This document shows, in pieces, positions 1,423 to 57,695 of a stretch of DNA of 64,000 nt. Positions within the stretch are counted from its first letter, which is position 1. Each line of letters begins with the position of its first letter. This DNA comes from a virus. Taxonomy: Duplodnaviria > Caudoviricetes. Location of the stretch: positions 1 to 64,000 of IMG/VR virus record IMGVR_UViG_3300031992_000007; one strand, given 5' to 3'. Below the pieces are notes generated by a model that saw only the letters and a program-made list of their open reading frames with translations, was not told the origin of the DNA and did no database searches. A program made the position numbers and the translations under genes.

Positions 1423-2268
1423 AGGTGTTAGTCCTGTATACGATAAAGCTTCTGCTAGAACAAATGGTGTACTAGATAGTGGGTTGGTTACTGCTGACGG
1501 ATGGTACTTCTTCTCTGAATGTGAACCTTCGGCACGCGGTAAAGTAAGGCTCTCCGGAGGTGTAACTCAGCGAAGTGATAAATTGTGGGGAACAAACTGC
1601 CTTTGCGTAGTTGGATACAGTAGTGACTACGGAACATTAAGTGGATACTGGTGGGCTCCTTATATCGAATCTGAGACACCTACATACAGGCTCTCCAAAA
1701 GGTGAAGCACGTGATTTCCCATCTATGGTTGTACAAGATTTGAGAACAGATGGAGATATAAGCTCCAAAATAGGTACCGCATGGAGCTTCTCCAATGTCT
1801 ATTATGCTGCCACATGGCAGATAGAAGGAAAGAAATATGACAGATGGCTCTCCCACAAGGTGCAGAAACATATGACGACTACATGACCAAAGAGTGGGTA
1901 TGTGTACATATTGGATCTATTGACAGATGGCAGAATGGTCTACAGTATCCAGCCGTTGGATCTTCAGGCACATACGGTAGAGGGCTCTCCTGAGGTGGGT
2001 CATCTAGACCAGGATTTGGAGAATGGATGATCGGAGGCAAACGAAAATCACCAGACAATGCGGATTCACCTTATCTATCTGTGTGTTCTTTTGGAGAATA
2101 CCTAAATAAACCAATCGCATGGCTCTCCTAGGTGGAAGCGACACTGGAACCAGTAATAAACTCCCACCAACAATGTTGATGTATATCCCAAATTGGACAG
2201 GTGGATTATTCCCAGATCAAGATGGACCAATGGCACACCGAGTCGGCACACTCAGATATAGGCTCTCC
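1423..2268 (+). repeat. cassette array 1: six (A)GGTG...GGCTCTCC-bounded in-frame peptide-coding cassettes
   Basis: Cassettes (GGT to CTCTCC): 1424-1555 (44 codons), 1559-1696 (46), 1701-1853 (51), 1859-1990 (44), 1994-2128 (45), 2131-2268 (46). All stop-free. Linkers gga, aaaa, cacaa, tga, ta. Confidence 0.9.
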
Positions 2269-3617: not shown

Positions 3618-4016
3618 TCAGAATATCCTCCGCTGAATGTAGGTTCCTGTGTTGTCCACCGGAAGATCTCCATCTATCCCGTCTACACGGAAGGTGATTT
3701 CTGCCTCACCTGTCTCAGAGTCAACTCTGGTGATCTGATGAGTTACAGACACCTTAGAGAAGTAGATCGTGTTTGGCACGATGACATAGTCCTTCTCTAC
3801 CTTGAATTCAGCAGGGAACGACCGGAGGAGATCGTGCCCAGCCTGAGGGTAGGAGACCAGAGCCGCTTCATTGATCCGGGTCATCCACTCCCCCTTACCA
3901 GTGAGGTAGATAGGGCAGAATTCCGCATCTGTGATCTTGTCCTCTTTATCCCTGACGAGATGACGGGCAACAGCACAGATCATGAACTTTTCACTTTTCA
4001 GGAACTTTGGATTCAT
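3618..4016 (-). CDS. hypothetical protein
   Basis: ATG 4016 (MNPKFLK...) overlapping the end of the upstream gene; 132 aa. Confidence 0.6.
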   Translation of the reverse strand: MNPKFLKSEKFMICAVARHLVRDKEDKITDAEFCPIYLTGKGEWMTRINEAALVSYPQAGHDLLRSFPAEFKVEKDYVIVPNTIYFSKVSVTHQITRVDSETGEAEITFRVDGIDGDLPVDNTGTYIQRRIF

Positions 4017-8526: not shown

Positions 8527-10722
8527 ATGAGTACTGCTATTGAAAACCTTTTCAAGAAGATCGACGAGCACGTCGCTTCTATGGAAGGTGCGAAACTCTC
8601 CGCCGAGTACGTTGAGGCCACGCGGTCTATCGGTCAGGCGGTTGAGACTTGGGCAGACAACCTCAACCTCGTCGACAAGAAGACGGTTGATGGTGTCGAA
8701 GTGTGCTATGCTTCGGAGTCTTATGATACGTCGGCTCTCGGTGGTATGCTGGGTGCTGAGCAGATCGTGGATCTCTGCAAGAAGGCGCACGTTGCGAACG
8801 AACACCTCGGCGCTGCCGCCAAGCGCGTTGCGGCCCTTCTGGACCAGACGCTCGGTAAGAGCGAGGGTCAGGCGTTCAGGTCTTATTCTTCGAGGAAGAC
8901 GACCGACAAGGTCATGTCTTCTGTTGAGTCGCTCTACCCGGCGGATCTCGTCCGTCGTCTCGGTGGCTCGCAGTCGCTCGAAGTATTCGGTATCCAGATG
9001 GACCGTGTTGAGCCGGATCTGAAGACGATCCTCACGATCGCCCTCCTCCAGTTCCACATGAACCTCACGCCCCGGATCGTCCCGGTTCAGACCGTGACGC
9101 AGGGTAACGTGACGATCGTCCGTGAGAACCTCCAGGTCTTCGATATGTCGAAGGATGCTAAGGAGCCGACCCGTGTGATCGAGCTCTATCGTGATCCTTC
9201 CCTCGTGTCGGTTGCCGCTCAGCGCATCAAGCCGCTGATGGGTGCTGACAACAAGAACGCAGCCTTCCTCGTCGCGGATGACATCTACAAGTTCGCGAAG
9301 AAGATCGATATGTTCGAGGTCGCTCTTGACAAGACGCGTCCGGGTTGGGACAAGTACAACCATACGGACTTCGTTGAGGACAACATCTGCCTCGACGGCG
9401 TCCTTATCAAGATCGAGAATTCGGATGTCTCGGGCAAGGCATTCTACCACATGCTCCCGATTCCGACCTCTCGTGGTCACTTCACTCAGGTGTCGCAGGA
9501 TGCCAAGTCGACGATCCGTCGTCTCTGGCTCGATCGTTATCCTACGCGCATCATCGCGGCTTCTCCGGCTGATACGAAGTCGGGCAAGGCGTCGGATGCG
9601 TCGGTTATCGCTGCTCTCACGAACGGCGCTGGCCTCGCGATCGATCTCCACATCGACGCCAACGTTGATCGTCAGACCTCGACGCTCGCTTCGGGCGGCT
9701 GGATCGGCGATCTCGCCATCAAGGGTGGTACCCTCTCTGACGCTGACCGCGCGGCGCTTCTGGCGAAGTTCACGGTCACGCTCGAGGGCTTCACGCTCGA
9801 TGCGCGTTTCAATGAAGACAACAAGCGCAAGACGTCCATCCGCGCTGAAGTTGTCCGTCGCTCCATGAGCTACGAGCTCCCCACGGGCCGTAACTTCGTG
9901 GTTGACGCAGCCATCGGTCAGGACGGTGTTACGAACGCTGCCGCGTACCTCGCGCAGCTGGAGCACATCGGCCGCGACCATAACAACCTCCAGATCATCG
10001 AGTCCACCCTCAAGGCGGTTCACGATGAGAACCTCTCCATGAACAACGACAAGGAAGTCCGTGACTCCCTCGCTAACCAGTACGCTGCTGGCGACCTGGT
10101 TAACCAGTTCGTTTACATGGACACCCTGGATATGAGCGGTATGTACGGCATCCGTTCTGCTGACGCCTCGGGCGATATCAAGCAGTTCGTGAAGCAGTAC
10201 TTCAACCGTCTCACCACCGCTCTGCTCGCGAAGACCTACTTCGACAAGCAGCTCTCGGAGAATGCCACGGTGACGTTCCGCGTGATCACTTCGGGTACGC
10301 TCCTCGGCGACCTGTTCAAGATGAAACACATCCATCAGCACCTCGACGGCGACAAGGACGGCACGGGTGGTGTTGAGCATGTGATGCCTCTTGACAACGG
10401 CGTCGTGCTCGAGTTCGTTACGACCACGTTCGAGGTCATGACGAACAAGATCCTTCTGATCCCGTACCTCGCTAACGCGCAGGGTTCGGTGCTGAACTTC
10501 GGCACAGACTTCGATCAGGGCACCCTGGTCGGCGCGATCAGCTATGCTGGTGAGGACAGCGCGGCGTTCCACCGCACGTTCTCCGTTACGCGTGAGCTCC
10601 TCATCCCGACGAACGTTATGGGCGCCGTGGTCGAGGTGTCTGGGTATACGGGTATCACCATGAACGACTCCACGAGCTCGCTCACGGTGGTCGGTGTTAC
10701 CGAAACGGCTCCCAACTCCTAA
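8527..10722 (+). CDS. major capsid protein (phiKZ gp120-like)
   Basis: 731 aa; strong high-expression codon bias; S-x-E maturation sites (SME, SLE) in the N-terminal region; LEGFTLDARFNEDNKR motif; synteny with helicase; strong terminator downstream. Confidence 0.8.
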   Translation: MSTAIENLFKKIDEHVASMEGAKLSAEYVEATRSIGQAVETWADNLNLVDKKTVDGVEVCYASESYDTSALGGMLGAEQIVDLCKKAHVANEHLGAAAKRVAALLDQTLGKSEGQAFRSYSSRKTTDKVMSSVESLYPADLVRRLGGSQSLEVFGIQMDRVEPDLKTILTIALLQFHMNLTPRIVPVQTVTQGNVTIVRENLQVFDMSKDAKEPTRVIELYRDPSLVSVAAQRIKPLMGADNKNAAFLVADDIYKFAKKIDMFEVALDKTRPGWDKYNHTDFVEDNICLDGVLIKIENSDVSGKAFYHMLPIPTSRGHFTQVSQDAKSTIRRLWLDRYPTRIIAASPADTKSGKASDASVIAALTNGAGLAIDLHIDANVDRQTSTLASGGWIGDLAIKGGTLSDADRAALLAKFTVTLEGFTLDARFNEDNKRKTSIRAEVVRRSMSYELPTGRNFVVDAAIGQDGVTNAAAYLAQLEHIGRDHNNLQIIESTLKAVHDENLSMNNDKEVRDSLANQYAAGDLVNQFVYMDTLDMSGMYGIRSADASGDIKQFVKQYFNRLTTALLAKTYFDKQLSENATVTFRVITSGTLLGDLFKMKHIHQHLDGDKDGTGGVEHVMPLDNGVVLEFVTTTFEVMTNKILLIPYLANAQGSVLNFGTDFDQGTLVGAISYAGEDSAAFHRTFSVTRELLIPTNVMGAVVEVSGYTGITMNDSTSSLTVVGVTETAPNS

Positions 10723-10795
10723 AAGTTGGATGGTCGTGTAGGACTGCGCAAATAAAGGCTTATGCGACCATAGTCTAAATAAGCGATGCAAAGTT

Positions 10796-10850
10796 GGGCA
10801 GGCGGGGCGTTGGCGCGCCCTGCCTGTCCTTCTGTTTCTTTTTTCTTTTT
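10796..10850 (+). terminator. MCP intrinsic terminator (left wall of array 2)
   Basis: GC-rich hairpin GGGCAGGCGGGGCG...CGCCCTGCCTGTCC followed by a long T-rich tract. Confidence 0.8.
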
Positions 10851-10853
10851 AGG

Positions 10854-11107
10854 GGAGAGCCCTGTATAGTCTCTACTATCAGGTTTTCCTGAAGGAGGAT
10901 TTTGATTGTTATACGGCCAATAAGTATTCCACACTTGTCCATAGATAACATGCTTCCCTTCCTCATTGTTCGCCTTTGTCGAATCACCTCCCGTTGGAGA
11001 GCCTGTGATCTTCTGTGATGAGAGATGCTGTATCATGTCGTGCAACTATTCCGGATTTATCTAAGTCGTATAGATAAGCAGTTTGTGACTCTATTAGTTC
11101 TTCACCT
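10854..11107 (-). repeat. cassette array 2, inverted part: two cassettes on the minus strand
   Basis: 11106-10996 (37 codons, GEELIESQ...EDHRLS) and 10988-10854 (45 codons, GDSTKANN...DYTGLS). Both run AGGTG...GGCTCTCC on - and are stop-free. Confidence 0.9.
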
Positions 11108-11110
11108 CAT

Positions 11111-11913
11111 GGTGTTGGTGTGTATGCTGGTGCACAAATGGCTAGACTGTTCTTGGTTTATGATCTCAAACAAGATCCCGGAAGAGTGGATTTCTACGGA
11201 TACATCCCACCATCCTACCCTAACAATAGCGCACCAAGGCTCTCCATCTAGGAGGTGTAGTAGTCCACACTGCTGCAATTATTGGCGTATCAGCATGGCC
11301 AAATGTATGGAAAGACGGTCAGGTGATGCAAACTGATTATGGTGGTCTGCAGGTGAATCATACTAGCAATTGGCTCTCCGCCGGAGGTGGAACAATAAGT
11401 GCTCAAGGTTATGATTATTGGGCTCTGATAACTAATATTGGAAGAAAAGCTCCGACTAGTACTGATTTCATTTACTACAAAGAAGGCTCTAATACATGGT
11501 CTAATCCAGGATGGCTCTCCCTTATCCAAAGGTGAAAGTCACCCTTACCCAAATATCGAAGGAAATATGAAACGTAAAGTGTGGAAAATAGAAACAACAG
11601 GTGACATTAGGGATATATACATGTACGCCTTCCCATCTGATGCAATAAGGCTCTCCGAGGTGGAGGTGAGATTAGAGCATATGAGCACTGGTTTGTTGGC
11701 GGTACACACATGTTAGGTAAAATAGCTGTAATACACAACGATGGTTATTATCTAGATGGAACGTGGGCTGATGCAGTAAGGCTCTCCTAAAAAGGTGAAG
11801 TAAGACCGTACTACCATTGGTTCGTGGATGGTATACACCAATTGGGAAAAGTGATTATAGTGTACAACGAGAGTTACTACCTGGGAACATCTGCTTATGT
11901 TGTAAGGCTCTCC
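11111..11913 (+). repeat. cassette array 2, forward part: six cassettes
   Basis: 11111-11245 (45 codons), 11254-11379 (42), 11386-11520 (45), 11531-11656 (42), 11659-11787 (43), 11794-11913 (40). All in frame and stop-free; linkers 2-10 nt. Confidence 0.9.
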
Positions 11914-11936
11914 TATTGACAAAAATAAAGATAGTA

Positions 11937-11963
11937 CTCCCTGACCCTTCTTGGGTCAGGGAG
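11937..11963 (-). terminator. DNA polymerase terminator (right wall of array 2)
   Basis: CTCCCTGACCC/GGGTCAGGGAG stem; A-tract 11921-11929 on +. Confidence 0.75.
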
Positions 11964-11976
11964 CTCCAGCTTCTTT

Positions 11977-13716
11977 TTAAGCTATTTGTACTTCTGGATG
12001 TCTTCTCTTCATCCATTCATCAATACCTTCGAATCCCGGCAATCCGAACCTCTTGCCAACTTCCATAGAGTTAGCTTCGGTATAGATCGCATCGTTCATG
12101 AAGTCATTGATGTCGAATGTCTTGTAGTTTCTTGTCTCTGGTGGCAACTGGATTGTTTCTACATTGACGATACCCCTTCTTCTAGAGTTGTCAATGAGTA
12201 GCAATGTTGCCATCTTGGTCTCCTTGGAACAGTTCAAAAGTTTCAAAAGTGAGGGGTACATCGACGTAACATCTATATCACAGACCATTCTGCACGCACG
12301 AACAACTGCATCATACTCCTTCAAAGCAGGTACCGAAACCATCAACGCCTTTTCAGGAGACAACACTGCACCACCTTTGTTCTTGATCATGTAGTCCCAC
12401 TTGTCATCGATCCTGTTACCTATAGCTGCTGGGATGCAACCACGGTCATCTAGGTATTCGAAGAAGTAGTTCTTAAGCTGGATAGACTGATGAGCGAAAC
12501 AATCCAAAGTAGAGGATCCTATCAGCATCATCATGTTGACCACGTCAGCATTCTTGATCTCCATCACGTGCATGATAAGAACGTCGACGATGTTGTACAC
12601 GACATATTCGACCTGATGAAGCCTCTGCATCCCCTGGTGGTTACCTTCATCACCGAACTCCTCGAAACTCATCTTACCAGCACCGATCTCTTTGCCGCCG
12701 ATGGCATCGAGTTTGTAAGAAGGTTCTTTTGGTTTGGCTTTACGAAGCCTTCCGTAGAGACACATGGCATCGTAGAACCTGGTATAATCAGTGAGGCTGA
12801 ACCAAGACCATCTATCGGTCATATGCCCATCCTTCTTACCAGGGTCTGCTTTGTACTTCGCTGTTCTGAATTTGAACGGAACGTCTGGATGACACATCAC
12901 ATTAGCTGGATCGACACCACGGAACTCCAGGCGTTTCATGATCCAGGGGATGTCGTAGTCCATGTTCCACACACCACAGAAGTCTGGTTTGCACTCGTGT
13001 ATCTTATCGAAGATCCATTTGATTAAATCAAGTTCTTTGTCGAACAGCTGAAGGTCTAGACGTATATCAGTTTTCTTGTACGCCTCTAGACCTTTCTTGT
13101 TAAGCTGTTTAACGAACATTGGTTCAACCTTGTTCTTCCAATAGTTCCTCACTTCATCTGTAGTGTGGTTAAGGAAGAAGGATTTGAGTATGCCAGTAAA
13201 AGTTCTTCCATCTCCGTTCATGTAAGTACAGACGATGACATCATCGTGTCCAAACACGTCAGTCTCAATATCGAGTGCACCTACATTGTACTTAAGAGGA
13301 AGCCTGCCTCCATTAGACCTTTTGTATCCTAACTTGAGGTGTACACCATAATCAATGTCAGCTCCATAAACGTAAGGACTAGATAGCATCTCCTTAAGCC
13401 TCACGTAGAACGGAGGTCTTTTCCACTGACCTGGTTTACAGTTAAGTGCACTCCACAATGTTCCCGCAATGTTGTTGACACGACATCTGTACATGTCAAG
13501 TTCTTCTTTAGATGCAAGTTCTCGTTTGACTGTGTTCCTTCGACAACCAGGTTTAGCTACCCATACCTTGGTCTCTGGTCGTTCGATGATCTTGAGCTCA
13601 CTGTGACCATCCTCCAGACTCTTGATACATGCCACGTAAGCATCGTAGTCTTTGTCTCCTCCGACTCGTGCCAAGTATTCTCCGTGGATGTAGACTGAAT
13701 CCTTAACTGGAATCAT
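11977..13716 (-). CDS. family B DNA polymerase subunit (3'-5' exonuclease plus motif A; split phiKZ-type polymerase)
   Basis: ExoI LDIETD, ExoII WNMDYDIPW, SYKLDAI, ExoIII YNIVD, motif A DIDVTSMYPS; no motif B or C; GGAAGGAG RBS before ATG 13716. Confidence 0.85.
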   Translation of the reverse strand: MIPVKDSVYIHGEYLARVGGDKDYDAYVACIKSLEDGHSELKIIERPETKVWVAKPGCRRNTVKRELASKEELDMYRCRVNNIAGTLWSALNCKPGQWKRPPFYVRLKEMLSSPYVYGADIDYGVHLKLGYKRSNGGRLPLKYNVGALDIETDVFGHDDVIVCTYMNGDGRTFTGILKSFFLNHTTDEVRNYWKNKVEPMFVKQLNKKGLEAYKKTDIRLDLQLFDKELDLIKWIFDKIHECKPDFCGVWNMDYDIPWIMKRLEFRGVDPANVMCHPDVPFKFRTAKYKADPGKKDGHMTDRWSWFSLTDYTRFYDAMCLYGRLRKAKPKEPSYKLDAIGGKEIGAGKMSFEEFGDEGNHQGMQRLHQVEYVVYNIVDVLIMHVMEIKNADVVNMMMLIGSSTLDCFAHQSIQLKNYFFEYLDDRGCIPAAIGNRIDDKWDYMIKNKGGAVLSPEKALMVSVPALKEYDAVVRACRMVCDIDVTSMYPSLLKLLNCSKETKMATLLLIDNSRRRGIVNVETIQLPPETRNYKTFDINDFMNDAIYTEANSMEVGKRFGLPGFEGIDEWMKRRHPEVQIA

Positions 13717-13818
13717 AGTTACTCCTTCCATTGAATCATACGAACTGAGCAAAATGTAAAAACAAAAAGGTTAAGAGCCTCTACCAGCCTTCCGACCGGT
13801 AGAGGGGTATGAGGGAAA

Positions 13819-52763: not shown

Positions 52764-55667
52764 ATGTCAACTGTTGCTCCTTATCCTCACGTAGAGATTG
52801 GGGTCAGAGACGAGTCGATTTACATCCCTATTGACACTGAGGACATGCCGCTTTCGCAGCCGCTGTACTTCATGCGTGCCAAGAAGGGCCCTGTCGGGGT
52901 TCCTGTCTGGTGCGTGTCGTACGACGTAGCCTGCAGGGTGTTCGGCGCGGACACCTTCAACAAGCGCAGTCCGTACTTCTCGGAACAGGCGAAGTTCTTG
53001 CTCCAGACGTTCCCGATGAACGGCGCATGGATTATGCGTGTTGCCGGTCCGACGGTCACGTCCGCTGATATCCAGATCGAAGTGGGTATCTCTAAGGAGA
53101 CGGTCGATGTTCCGCAGTGGCAGAGGGACGAGAACGGCGCATTCGTTCTCGAACTCGACGGATCGAAGATTCCGATCAACGATGAGGGCAAGCCGTGCGA
53201 GAAGATAGAGAATCCTGATCACAAGGCTATCTATCGTCGCGCGACTGAAACGATCGCTATCCAGGGTCGTACCTACTTCACGCGCGATGCGAATCGTTCC
53301 TACGCTGCTATCAACCGTAGGGATCGTCGTATCAAGGACGTTGAGTATTTCGCTGGTAACGGCACGCCTACTCTGGCTGTTGTCGATACTGCCACAGAGA
53401 CTGAGCCTAAGGCTGGTGTCCGTTACTTCGAGTTGGACATCACGGGTGAAGAGGGTGCTGAGACGTATGCTGCGAAGTATATCGTCGATCTGACCGCTTT
53501 CGATAGCGAGAAGACATACCTCAAGCTCACGGGCTGGTCCGGTGGTTACACGGCAGTCACGACTGTCGATGATGGTTCTGGTACGCAGGTTGGTCCTGTG
53601 CTTCCGCAGATCCCCGTTGGTAACACGCAGGGTGATCGCTTCGTCAAGATTCAGGAGAACGTCAGCCTCAAGCTCGTTGAGGTCGATGGCGGTTACGCTG
53701 TCGATGCTTCTGATTCCGAGACGGCTGCGGCGTACGGTTCGTACTTCTTCATGGGTACGCTCGACGAGACCGATCCTTACACGTACACGAACGCTGAGGT
53801 TCCGGCTGGCACGTACATCGCTGACACCGAACTCTACTACTTCTACGGCTGGCTTGATGACTACACTCTCGAGCCGCAGGCCAAGATCCCTGGTCGCAAG
53901 CTTGTGTGGCGTGCTCGTGTCGCGGATCGCTCCGCTGATACTGGTCGTGCCGTTGGCAAGTTCAAGACCTACGAGACCGAGAACTTCAAGTGGTATCCAG
54001 TCGTGGATATCGTTGCGGAGAACCCGGGTAAGTGGGGCGAGTCGTTCGGTATTCGTCTGTACTTCGACAAGGATCGCAACACGATTGCGCTCCAGCAGCA
54101 GAACGGTGCTGTCAACTACACGGTTGCTCCTATCGAGCTTCTCGATGGTGACACGCTCCCGACGGCGGTTGTGTCGTCGACACAGGACATCTGCGTTGTC
54201 GGTACGATGCGTGACGGAGTTGTTGACCTCGAGACCGACGTTGACCTCTCGCTCAACAAGCGTATCCCGAACATGTACAAGGGCCTGCAGACCCTTCCGA
54301 TCAAGATCGTTCCGGTCTCCGAGGCTTGGAATGCTATCGGTAAGGAGTTGATGGCTGCTGAAATCTCGCAGGAAGCCCGTCGTGAGATCAAGCGTCTCTA
54401 TCCGACGTTCCGCACTGTTGTGGACACTGAGGGTACCGAAACGCCTGAGACCTTCGTGGATGCTCTCTACGGCAAGGTCGTCACTGACATGGCTGATGTT
54501 GGCGAGCTCGATGGTCACATGGCTAACCCGCTCAGCTGCATGGATGCGGAAGAGATTCCGTACTTCACGACGGCTGTTGTGGACAGCGATGATGAACTCG
54601 TTACTGCCGACTCGCGTATCGATGTTGCGAAGGTCTATGTCCCGGCGCAGTCTGTCCCGATTTACCTCGGCGGCGGTAACGACGGCGATATCCTCGATAA
54701 CGACATCGAGAAGTACATCCGTGCGCAGATCAAGGCTGGCCAGGGTGGTACGCAGGAATATCTCCTCGACTATCCGCGCTGCCCGTTCAACGCAATCTAC
54801 GACTCTGGTGTGTCGGTGAAGACGAAGAAGGCGTACATCGACATGATGGCCTTCCGCGACAACGTTGTGATCAACCTGGCTACTCAGACGACCTGGCGTA
54901 CGGCGACGAATGAGGAATACTCGCTCAACGGTGAGTACCCGAACAATCGCTCGGACGACGAGTCGATCGGTGCGTCGCTTCGCTCCTATGCGTGGCTGAT
55001 GCGTGAGGACGTGAACAATGGTACGGAAGCGTGCCGTTGCAAGATCTTCCTTCATGCTGGTAAGATCAGTGGTTTCGATGGCTGGGTACCTGCGACCCTC
55101 TGGATCGCGATGAAGGATGCCGAGTATCTGAACCTCGATCACATCGATCAGGAGCCTGCTGGCCTGCCTAACTCGGCGGTCACTTGCTTCACTGAGGTGT
55201 CGTGGCGTGCTGGAACTGCGGACACGCAGAGCCGTTGCTGGAATGCTGGTCTCAACTACTGGCAGTCTTACGACAAGGATACGGCTGATGGTCAGGCGCG
55301 TCTGCACTACGCTGCGCTCCGTACTGTCTACCGCTACGAGACTTCTGTTCTCGTCGACTCGGGCGTTGTGAACGCGCTCTGCTTCTCTAAGGACATCGTC
55401 CGCAAGAGCTGGGCTAAGTTCTCTGGCGTCAAGATGTGGTCGGCTGAGCTGAATGCTCGTGTCACCAAGGACCTTACTCAGCGTCTCAGCTACATGCTGA
55501 ACGGTAAGTATACGGCCGAGGTGAATGTGTATCAGACTGATGAAGACGTCAAGCTCGGTTATACGCGCCACGTCGACATCATCCTGACTTCGCCCGCTAC
55601 CAACCGCGTCTGGCAGACCACTATCATCTGTCGTCGTGAGGGTTACGATCCCAATGCGGCTGAGTAA
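52764..55667 (+). CDS. tail sheath protein (phiKZ gp29-like) with insertion
   Basis: 967 aa; GVRDES, P-L-YF...KGP, YLGGGNDG, YDSGVS..TKK, LRTVY motifs; high-expression codons; followed by the tube gene. Confidence 0.85.
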   Translation: MSTVAPYPHVEIGVRDESIYIPIDTEDMPLSQPLYFMRAKKGPVGVPVWCVSYDVACRVFGADTFNKRSPYFSEQAKFLLQTFPMNGAWIMRVAGPTVTSADIQIEVGISKETVDVPQWQRDENGAFVLELDGSKIPINDEGKPCEKIENPDHKAIYRRATETIAIQGRTYFTRDANRSYAAINRRDRRIKDVEYFAGNGTPTLAVVDTATETEPKAGVRYFELDITGEEGAETYAAKYIVDLTAFDSEKTYLKLTGWSGGYTAVTTVDDGSGTQVGPVLPQIPVGNTQGDRFVKIQENVSLKLVEVDGGYAVDASDSETAAAYGSYFFMGTLDETDPYTYTNAEVPAGTYIADTELYYFYGWLDDYTLEPQAKIPGRKLVWRARVADRSADTGRAVGKFKTYETENFKWYPVVDIVAENPGKWGESFGIRLYFDKDRNTIALQQQNGAVNYTVAPIELLDGDTLPTAVVSSTQDICVVGTMRDGVVDLETDVDLSLNKRIPNMYKGLQTLPIKIVPVSEAWNAIGKELMAAEISQEARREIKRLYPTFRTVVDTEGTETPETFVDALYGKVVTDMADVGELDGHMANPLSCMDAEEIPYFTTAVVDSDDELVTADSRIDVAKVYVPAQSVPIYLGGGNDGDILDNDIEKYIRAQIKAGQGGTQEYLLDYPRCPFNAIYDSGVSVKTKKAYIDMMAFRDNVVINLATQTTWRTATNEEYSLNGEYPNNRSDDESIGASLRSYAWLMREDVNNGTEACRCKIFLHAGKISGFDGWVPATLWIAMKDAEYLNLDHIDQEPAGLPNSAVTCFTEVSWRAGTADTQSRCWNAGLNYWQSYDKDTADGQARLHYAALRTVYRYETSVLVDSGVVNALCFSKDIVRKSWAKFSGVKMWSAELNARVTKDLTQRLSYMLNGKYTAEVNVYQTDEDVKLGYTRHVDIILTSPATNRVWQTTIICRREGYDPNAAE

Positions 55668-55691
55668 TCCAACACGAAAGGAGATTGAAAA

Positions 55692-56636
55692 ATGGCAAGT
55701 TACGAAAACTTTCTTAAGAACAAGAAGGTTCTTACGCCGGATGGTGGCATAGTCTCTGACCTCATCACAGGTGGTCAGCTCGGTTACGGTTACAAGGCCT
55801 CTGGCTTCGACGCCGCGACCCCGCTGGCTCTTCCGCCTGCGTTCATCGTCGTCCTTCAGACTCCTACGATGTGGGATAACCTGAATGACGAGGGTGTGCT
55901 TCGTCAGACTGTGAAGTGTCTCTTCGAGACACACGCCAAAGCGGTCACTGGTATCGATGCGAACTACACGCTCGAGAATCAGGGTCAGCCTGTCGGTCAC
56001 GACTCGCAGGAACTCAAGGTTCCGACGCGCTCCACTCGTGCTCCTGTTGATCCGAACTTCACCTGGAGTGAGGTCACGGGTAACCTGGTGTGGCGTGTCA
56101 TGCATCGCTGGATCTGGGATATTTCCAACCCGGATACTGGTACGGCGTTCGAGCACGAAGGTGCCAACGTCAGTGAGGCTGCGCTCAATACGTACACGAT
56201 GTCCTCGTATGCGTTGACGTTCGCGGTTCTCCAGTACGACAAGACGATGCATCCTGATCGTATGCTGGATGGCTCGATCATCACCAACGTCTACCCGACG
56301 ACCACTGGTGAGTTCGGTATGGAGAGGACGGAGGGAACCACGAAGGTTCCTGAGCGTGCTATCGCCTTCACTGGTTACATCATTCACAACGAGCGTACGA
56401 AGGAGATCGCCCGTACCATCGCCAAGAGCATCAAGCTCCGTGGTGAGACGTACAAGGTCGCCCGTGCGAACGTAGATGACAATGTGCCGGTCAGCCAGCT
56501 GCTCGGTACAGTTGGTCTGGGTGACAATATCCAGCTCACGCGTACCGCCGAGCGTAAAGACTGGAACATCGCTGCTCCTAGCGGTGAGAAGGGTCCTACG
56601 AATCAGCTCAACTACCCGTACGCGATCAAAGGTTAG
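55692..56636 (+). CDS. tail tube protein (phiKZ gp30-like)
   Basis: 314 aa directly after the sheath; LFETHAKAVTGID, P-TTTGE motifs; strong terminator downstream. Confidence 0.8.
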   Translation: MASYENFLKNKKVLTPDGGIVSDLITGGQLGYGYKASGFDAATPLALPPAFIVVLQTPTMWDNLNDEGVLRQTVKCLFETHAKAVTGIDANYTLENQGQPVGHDSQELKVPTRSTRAPVDPNFTWSEVTGNLVWRVMHRWIWDISNPDTGTAFEHEGANVSEAALNTYTMSSYALTFAVLQYDKTMHPDRMLDGSIITNVYPTTTGEFGMERTEGTTKVPERAIAFTGYIIHNERTKEIARTIAKSIKLRGETYKVARANVDDNVPVSQLLGTVGLGDNIQLTRTAERKDWNIAAPSGEKGPTNQLNYPYAIKG

Positions 56637-56722: not shown

Positions 56723-57695
56723 AGGTGGGACAGGATTGGAATACCCATTTGTGAACTATGGGGATCCATCCAGCTCCATGATAAAGGTAATAAACCATAG
56801 AGGGAAATACTCTGCGGATTTTACTCAAGGACAATCGATCTTAAGTGCTCCTGGATGGCTCTCCAGGTGGGTACTTATACAGAACAGATGTAGATATATT
56901 CAACTACAGTGAAGGAGGCATTAGCGACCTAGGTAGATGTGGAATATGGGATTCTGTTACAACACATCCAATACAGAAAACCAGATGGCTCTCCAAGGTG
57001 GAGAGTATCTATACGTCAATCCACGAAACAACTTGTCTGCACGGGTAACGCAAATTAAATATGATGGCACCAGAGAATTTATTCCATATAACTCGAATAA
57101 ATCTAAAGAACAGAACGAATTGGTGATATGGCTCTCCTAGTGATGTGAGAGGTAGTACGTGGCAGTATGCAGCATCTAGAATAGGTGTTCAAGGTAGGTA
57201 CGGAGAATGGACTAATATTTGGAACTGGCCATACAGCTCTCGGTCTTATGAATCACCAGTAAGAGAGTTAAGGCTCTCCCAGGGAGGTGTAGGAATGCAT
57301 AGACCAGATGGAGACAATGGAAATCCTTGGGTATGTGGATCTACAACTGTAAACAACATTGGACAACCTCTGACGTATTACTCGAGAGTTAATCTTGGCG
57401 CAGATTCTGTGAAGAAAGTAGTAAGGCTCTCCCACTCATAGGTGCAGCAGATTTCGGATTAATGATGTTGACTGTGGGCTACCCTATGGGTTATGCAGAT
57501 CATGGAAACCAAGGAGTCGATCATCCTGACAGACCTAGATTTCAAAGGCTCTCCGCCGGAGGTGGAAATGAGATTAGACCTTTTGGATCAATTATTGACT
57601 TTAACGGTCAACTCGATTACCTAGGAAATGGGTGGGTATATTTCTTACCAAATGATCCGTTATGGACCAATAAGTCTTATTCTAAAAGGCTCTCC
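56723..57695 (+). repeat. cassette array 3: seven in-frame peptide-coding cassettes
   Basis: 56724-56864 (47 codons), 56866-56994 (43), 56997-57137 (47), 57151-57279 (43; AGGTA variant, with an in-frame AGGTG also at 57183), 57286-57432 (49), 57441-57554 (38), 57561-57695 (45). All stop-free; linkers 1-13 nt. Confidence 0.9.

Follow-up and report, generated by a model that had tools for sequence, protein, structure and literature searches.

The Mu G (Gin), P1 C (Cin) and R64 (Rci) systems keep, as DNA in mixed orientation, alternative C-terminal ends for a fibre or pilus-tip gene, together with short conserved crossover sequences. In all of them the ends lie at the 3' end of the expressed gene and are flipped by a neighbouring serine or tyrosine recombinase, so that segments are exchanged and not copied. 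Diversity-generating retroelements also have a C-terminal phage fibre as target, and in their case a stored template is copied one way. The nearest analogue of the locus described here is the vls system of Borrelia (vlsE and its silent cassettes, vlsS), while Neisseria pilE/pilS and Treponema tprK are looser ones. In vls, a promoterless silent array stands head-to-head with vlsE and opposite to it, the joint carries inverted repeats that reach a perfect palindrome in some strains, and frameshifts between silent cassettes are common (PMC11499132).

The DNA studied here, called the window, comprises the first 64,000 bases of the 265,480-bp genome of a rumen-type jumbo phage of the PhiKZ type, rated 100% complete. 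The motif GGCTCTCC occurs 53 times in this genome, namely in 52 silent cassettes and once in the ORF of a 1412-residue fibre. The promoterless silent cassettes (111-153 nt, 37-51 codons) form nine arrays situated 6-214 kb away from the fibre gene (224574-228812, minus strand), whose C-terminus is the single expression site. There, the expressed cassette lies between the constant fibre sequences QYWWLRSAG and PLITIG-stop. The sequence of this cassette (224595-224744, minus strand) matches, at 100% identity, that of the silent cassette 243708-243857 (plus strand), the last one of the array 243018-243857. Since both copies are present, the donor was kept at installation and the transfer was non-reciprocal; this is the one whole-cassette copy that was found. 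An all-against-all BLASTP of the cassettes returned only three related pairs in the genome, the expressed cassette and its donor forming one of them, and the sequence common to the cassettes is limited to A|GGTG and GGCTCTCC, sometimes also ccgccgga.

Six fibre homologues from other metagenomes keep both QYWWLRSAG and PLITIG around unrelated inserts of 40-55 residues, which start with G and end in RLS or WLS; none of these tips matches a cassette of this genome. A Pfam search of the fibre gave no family, and the AlphaFold2 model of its C-terminus (323 residues, 7-sequence alignment) was unusable, with a mean pLDDT of 35.7. In the fibre homologue P0052, the last 110 residues seemingly hold two cassette-like units in tandem after QYWWLRSAG and end in RLSE, not RLS-PLITIG, so that in some phages two or more units may occupy the expression site. 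As a separate observation, an 11-nt leader, gctccgccgga (genome 224745-224765), precedes the expressed cassette and also the silent cassette at 136579 (136560-136590), and gccgga, a shorter linker, is found at five junctions, of which the window contains two (11380-11385 and 57555-57560). This common leader or linker suggests that some transfers carried the flank of the expression site into the arrays.

The phage library resembles vls in its single expression site, its many promoterless donors and a one-way copying that leaves the donor intact. Moreover, in both systems the donors lie opposite to the expressed gene (50 of 52 in the phage), a head-to-head joint has inverted repeats, that of phage array 2 being partly palindromic, and the frame is broken between silent cassettes. 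On the other hand, the identity of vls donors to the expressed cassette is about 90%, and short segments of them are copied to give mosaics, whereas the phage cassettes are unrelated, share only borders of 5 and 8 nt, and were copied whole in the one observed case. The phage donors are dispersed in nine arrays over 265 kb and not gathered in one array beside the gene, and the joint separates two silent half-arrays, not a donor array from an expression site. Furthermore, a virus carries the library, and its target is a tail fibre rather than an antigen exposed to an immune system. The phage system works like silent-cassette conversion, yet it lacks the donor homology by which that family is recognised.

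With Mu G, P1 C and the R64 shufflon the phage library shares alternative fibre ends stored as DNA, mixed orientation and short conserved borders. Unlike them, it has its arrays far from the expressed gene, its donor and expressed copies coexist, and searches of the complete genome for serine (PF00239) and tyrosine (PF00589) recombinases gave no matches, the controls responding in both cases; unlike shufflons, it presents no alternative orientation among relatives or samples at consensus level. It differs from diversity-generating retroelements in that a PF00078 search of the complete genome returned no reverse transcriptase, the copy is 100% identical, with no adenine-specific changes, and there are 52 unrelated templates and not one. 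In the literature searched, on phage cassette libraries and the vls comparison, we found no description of a virus system of this kind.

Within the window, GGCTCTCC occurs 21 times, against 2.0 expected and with none of 100 shuffles reaching 21, and these copies define three arrays (Table 1). The present analysis concerns array 2 (10854-11913), which consists of two minus-strand cassettes (m1 and m2) and six plus-strand ones (p1 to p6), with minus-strand copies of GGCTCTCC at 10854-10861 and 10996-11003 and six plus-strand copies within 11238-11913. This arrangement had been proposed in a preliminary description of the DNA, and both the cassette limits with the strands of the motifs and the letters of the switch point agree with it. 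The capsid and polymerase genes are convergent, and the array fills the gap between their terminators; the 3' end of each half abuts the nearer terminator, that of the capsid gene for the minus half.

Table 1. Array 2, its neighbours and the other arrays of the same library in the window
Feature	Position	Strand	Description
Major capsid protein gene (PhiKZ_MCP family)	8527-10722	+	ORF; PF25620 on identical protein; left neighbour of array 2
Capsid gene terminator	10796-10850	+	15-bp GC-rich hairpin (10796-10829) and T-run; 99% identical in L091
Silent cassette m2, inverted	10854-10988	-	45 codons, G...GLS; outermost of the minus half
Silent cassette m1, inverted	10996-11106	-	37 codons, shortest in the genome
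Head-to-head junction CACCtcatGGTG	11103-11114		CACC 11103-11106, tcat 11107-11110, GGTG 11111-11114; two 5' borders 4 nt apart
Silent cassette p1	11111-11245	+	open frame; T before GGTG
Silent cassette p2	11254-11379	+	borders and open frame
Silent cassette p3	11386-11520	+	borders and open frame
Silent cassette p4	11531-11656	+	borders and open frame
Silent cassette p5	11659-11787	+	borders and open frame
Silent cassette p6	11794-11913	+	borders and open frame
Polymerase gene terminator hairpin	11936-11964	-	convergent gene; adjoins the 3' end of the plus half
Family B DNA polymerase gene	11977-13752	-	PF03104; right neighbour of array 2
Array 1, same library	1424-2268	+	6 cassettes
Array 3, same library	56724-57695	+	7 cassettes; co-directional with upstream plus-strand genes

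Each cassette is delimited by A|GGTG at the 5' end and by the final TCC of GGCTCTCC at the 3' end. The length of every cassette is divisible by 3. The frame defined by its GGT and TCC has no start codon and is open in all 52 silent cassettes of the genome, while the other five frames are open in 2, 0, 13, 3 and 3 of them. The two minus-strand cassettes of array 2 are closed in all three plus-strand frames and are therefore truly inverted coding units. The nucleotides of the borders are fixed even at synonymous positions (GGT, CTC and TCC in 52/52, and the A before GGT in 51/52), so that the borders must be regarded as signals at the DNA or RNA level and not as peptide motifs. The single exception is p1, the only one of the 52 silent cassettes with T in place of A before GGTG, and the same T is found in the contigs L091 and L092. 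The linkers are 1-13 nt long, in any phase and some with stops (8, 6, 10, 2 and 6 nt from p1 to p6). The last two cassettes, p5 and p6, are paralogues, 58% identical. No family was assigned by Pfam to seven array 2 cassette peptides, Rfam gave no match on 10600-12100 at E up to 1, and the tRNA scan of the 64-kb window was empty. Two other readings of the arrays were rejected: a single gene with frameshifts, hops or tiny introns, since the linkers keep to no phase, stops occur in some of them, and conservation of the borders is at the nucleotide level; and blades of a beta-propeller or another repeat protein, since the cassettes are mutually unrelated.

Two other features of the window are reported here for completeness. 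The stretch of about 70 nt from the capsid stop to the terminator (10723-10795) is almost unchanged in relatives with 88-90% identical capsid proteins, and parts of it (gcgcaaa...gcgatgca) persist in relatives at 60-72% capsid identity; it has no Rfam match and is probably a structured 3' element of the capsid mRNA. In the regions 9000-10700 and 53000-56600, the G+C content of the capsid gene and of two plus-strand genes that precede array 3 is 55-59%, compared with about 46% elsewhere, and these genes also bear long spurious antisense ORFs, in what looks like the distinct codon usage of heavily expressed virion genes.

Five lineages of the array 2 locus were recovered via the capsid protein or cassette m1, and all comparisons rest on consensus assemblies. 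The joint CACCtcatGGTG of the window, with two minus and six plus cassettes, is identical in its nearest relative (L091 and L092, two samples), which has two minus and at least three plus cassettes before the contigs end. The lineage L011, with one minus and four plus cassettes, has the joint CACCtccgccggaGGTG, a 17-nt near-palindrome; L007 and L008, with one cassette on each strand, have CACCtccggaGGTG, a perfect 14-nt palindrome; and L009 and L010, with three minus cassettes and one plus, have CACCtagcaataGGTG. In all five lineages there is one switch point, head-to-head, with the minus half beside the capsid terminator and the plus half beside the polymerase terminator. No array is present at this locus in relatives whose capsid protein is only 60-72% identical, and thus array and divergent layout have a single origin, in the clade's ancestor. 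Searches with the capsid protein against IMG/VR patterns and the INPHARED phage collection gave no relatives, those with the border patterns in IMG/VR gave only chance matches or unrelated tandem repeats, and the pattern of the capsid 3'-UTR had no matches in JGI metagenome contigs.

The layout is also stable between samples. The arrays of L007 and L008 are identical base for base, as are those of L009 and L010 (two-sample pairs), L091 and L092 have the same motif positions and the same sequence over their common 791 bases, and a second sample with the exact capsid and polymerase proteins of the window shows the same spacing and the same spurious ORFs. On the evidence of these assemblies, the back-to-back layout is an old, conserved feature of array 2 and not a sign of ongoing flipping. 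Near the array, L007 (8661-9560) and L009 (4280-5262) have an insertion between array and polymerase gene that comprises an HNH_3 endonuclease gene and a small ORF, and in both the polymerase ORF is called shorter (497 aa vs 579); a homing endonuclease beside the cassette array is a possible identification. The contigs L005, L091 and L092 break off either within the array or at the capsid terminator (795-nt contigs, two samples), and strain heterogeneity breaking the assemblies would fit these ends; unlike them, L006 ends in adapter sequence.

The conserved joint stands among cassettes that are renewed. Compared with L091, the capsid 3' region with its terminator is 99% identical at the nucleotide level, and the junction with 8 nt on each side is 100% identical. 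Cassette m1 is 92.8% identical, with 7 synonymous and 1 non-synonymous codon changes, p1 is 91% identical (6 synonymous : 4 non-synonymous) and p4 is 83% identical (5 synonymous : 10 non-synonymous). By contrast with these, m2 is replaced by an unrelated cassette of similar length with a different linker, and p2 together with p3 by one unrelated cassette with new linkers on both sides. Growth polarised from the junction, as in CRISPR arrays, was considered and rejected: the junction-proximal m1 and p1 are kept, but so is the distal p4, with m2 and p2+p3 replaced. The synonymous excess in m1 (24% synonymous expected, P = 3e-4, over only 8 changed codons) indicates that this minus-strand peptide is under purifying selection, though silent in place, which would be expected of a module expressed now and then elsewhere. 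No relative of m2 was found in the protein database.

The other three lineages (L011, L007/L008 and L009/L010) have no cassette in common with the window at the array 2 locus. Traffic between arrays and strands was nevertheless traced in other comparisons. In L009, the outermost cassette of the minus half (3648-3791, minus strand) has 81% identity, for nucleotides as for amino acids, to the cassette 243424-243567 (plus strand), which lies in another array of the present genome. The similarity ends exactly where the borders do, the flanks being 25% identical, and there are 11 synonymous against 9 non-synonymous codon changes (P = 0.002). Moreover, three cassettes of the relative L094 match cassettes in three different arrays of this genome, one of them being p3, which has 64% amino acid identity to its counterpart in a different array, and a relative's array syntenic to the one at 136 kb contains five unrelated cassettes. 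The cassettes are thus discrete units exchanged between arrays and strands, with breakpoints in the conserved borders. The comparison of lineages likewise shows, at the level of consensus assemblies, a joint that passed to the entire clade, with single cassettes being exchanged on either side of it. The DNA-level insertion or inversion of cassettes put forward in the preliminary description was thus borne out as regards cassette traffic, in the form of whole-unit replacement with breakpoints at the borders, but not as regards ongoing inversion, the layout being the same in all five lineages.

The origin of the joint can be sketched from its sequence. The normal cassette joint, GGCTCTCC-gcc-GGAGGTG, contains a small inverted repeat, CTCC/GGAG, and the palindromic joints of L007 and L011 are built from the standard ccggaGGTG leader. 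These two joints match the leftover of a strand switch or inversion through the CTCC/GGAG core, and for this reason the joint is read as a scar. A single ancient event, either an inverted duplication or an inversion, would have passed through the self-complementary core (CTCC...GGAG) and left it, and in the lineage of the window the scar would have been shortened to CACCtcatGGTG, with loss of the A before the GGTG of p1.

On the whole, m1 and m2 probably function within a library of silent donors that serves the long-fibre tip and is copied via short borders. According to this model, the library would serve to replace the last 40-50 residues of the long tail fibre, one cassette at a time being copied, not moved, into the single expression site. 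The two short borders would guide the copying and the orientation of the donor would be irrelevant, so that donors could be stored on either strand. Copying would take place between separate genome copies or over a long distance, by template switching or break repair, and a local inversion would not fit. The borders, of 5 and 8 nt and sometimes 14, are very short for ordinary homologous recombination, and an additional factor is therefore needed. As for m1 and m2 themselves, we infer their use as donors from their integrity and from the selection on m1.

A different account regards the inverted pair as a dead-end relic: m1 and m2 would have been flipped by accident and would persist although unusable as donors in this orientation. 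The distribution of strands speaks for it, since m1 and m2 are the only silent cassettes on the fibre strand, the other 50 being opposite to it; this bias has P = 6e-13 by cassette, or, in the fairer measure by half-array, 9 of 10 with P = 0.02. The fibre-proximal nine-cassette array of a relative with an 80%-identical fibre C-terminus is also opposite to the fibre strand. The bias hints that the orientation of the donor is not neutral, which counts against orientation-free copying, and a plausible explanation is that a crossover with an inverted donor would give a viable inversion and one with a direct donor a lethal deletion. In keeping with a relic, m1 is the shortest cassette, neither m1 nor m2 was found in any recovered fibre, and the adjacent p1 has the sole imperfect 5' border, TGGTG. 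However, the borders of m1 and m2 are perfect and their frames are open, while about 1 in 10 random frames of this length stays open; the synonymous excess in m1 points the same way, and a minus half of 1-3 cassettes is kept in five lineages with its members renewed, as in the replacement of m2 in L091 and the cassette of L009. We thus consider the relic unlikely. A further explanation of the strands, with every half-array antisense to its neighbour and blocking read-through, was discarded: it fits array 2 on both sides and fails for 56724-57695 and 234729-235269, which follow plus-strand genes.

Beyond the donors, the joint itself could be a working part of a border-recognising copying machine, either as a loading or hairpin site for outward reading on both strands or as a pivot for cassettes that pass between the halves. 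It would then play a part like the one suggested for the inverted repeat that separates vlsE from its donor array; we regard such a function as doubtful.

The proposal that array 2 is actively flipped fares less well. Like a shufflon or the Mu G segment, the array would be invertible by a recombinase acting about the palindromic junction, two minus and six plus cassettes would be one of several states, and GGAGAGCC-side and GGCTCTCC-side cassettes would be expected in new combinations. In fact, the joint is made of inverted 5' borders, perfectly palindromic in L007, the numbers of cassettes per side vary among lineages, and recombination between the inverted 3' borders of the halves would shift cassettes and still leave the joint head-to-head; the short contigs that end in or beside the array (L005, L091 and L092) may be added to these points. 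Against flipping stand the lack of serine or tyrosine recombinase matches in the genome, the same orientation of m1, junction and p1 in the nearest relative L091 and in L092, and the identity of the arrays between paired samples (over 791 bases for L091 and L092), together with the same ORF geometry in the second sample with identical capsid and polymerase genes. Furthermore, no array 2 cassette lies on opposite sides of the joint in two lineages, and orientation, the point on which the preliminary description had proposed to judge inversion, is fixed in all five. Active flipping is accordingly very improbable.

Least tenable of all, divergent small genes, with peptides expressed in place from a bidirectional promoter and GGAGGTG as ribosome-binding site, would account for the resemblance of GGAGGTG to a Shine-Dalgarno sequence, for the open frames of all cassettes and for the terminator at the end of each half-array, but the conserved frame has no ATG, GTG or TTG at its head and begins on GGT inside the would-be ribosome-binding site, the heads lie 4 nt apart with no promoter predicted at or near the joint in a search for the sigma-70 type, the border nucleotides are invariant at synonymous positions, the cassette unit also occurs in frame inside the fibre gene, and the cassette frames persist among relatives in which the called ORFs P0055 and P0056 differ in both frame and content. 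The earlier opinion that the joint leaves no room for a promoter and that these are not ordinary small genes is upheld by the same facts, as well as by the frame-breaking linkers and the unconserved spurious ORFs.

What is new here is the conservation of the head-to-head layout, the unit-by-unit swaps, the codon changes of m1, the presence of one cassette family on opposite strands and in different arrays in two phages, and the absence of matches to the enzymes of the known systems. The system offers no natural test of orientation other than the inverted pair, which indicates that cassettes can be stored, kept under selection at the protein level and renewed on either strand, with a unit of exchange bounded exactly by the 5-nt and 8-nt borders. 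With storage on either strand, border-exact exchange and neither a known recombinase nor a reverse transcriptase at hand, the mechanism is narrowed to copying guided by the borders, for which template switching or break repair anchored on very short homology are the candidates. The 50:2 strand bias and the head-to-head parallel with Borrelia vls suggest, by analogy, that cassette-copying systems may share a common constraint, and, if the joint is a working part, array 2 would be a place to catch a virus-encoded cassette-switching mechanism in action. If the library works as proposed, the phage would change its receptor-binding tip neither by mutation, as diversity-generating retroelements do, nor by flipping, as with Gin and Cin, but by installing ready-made, mutually unrelated modules.
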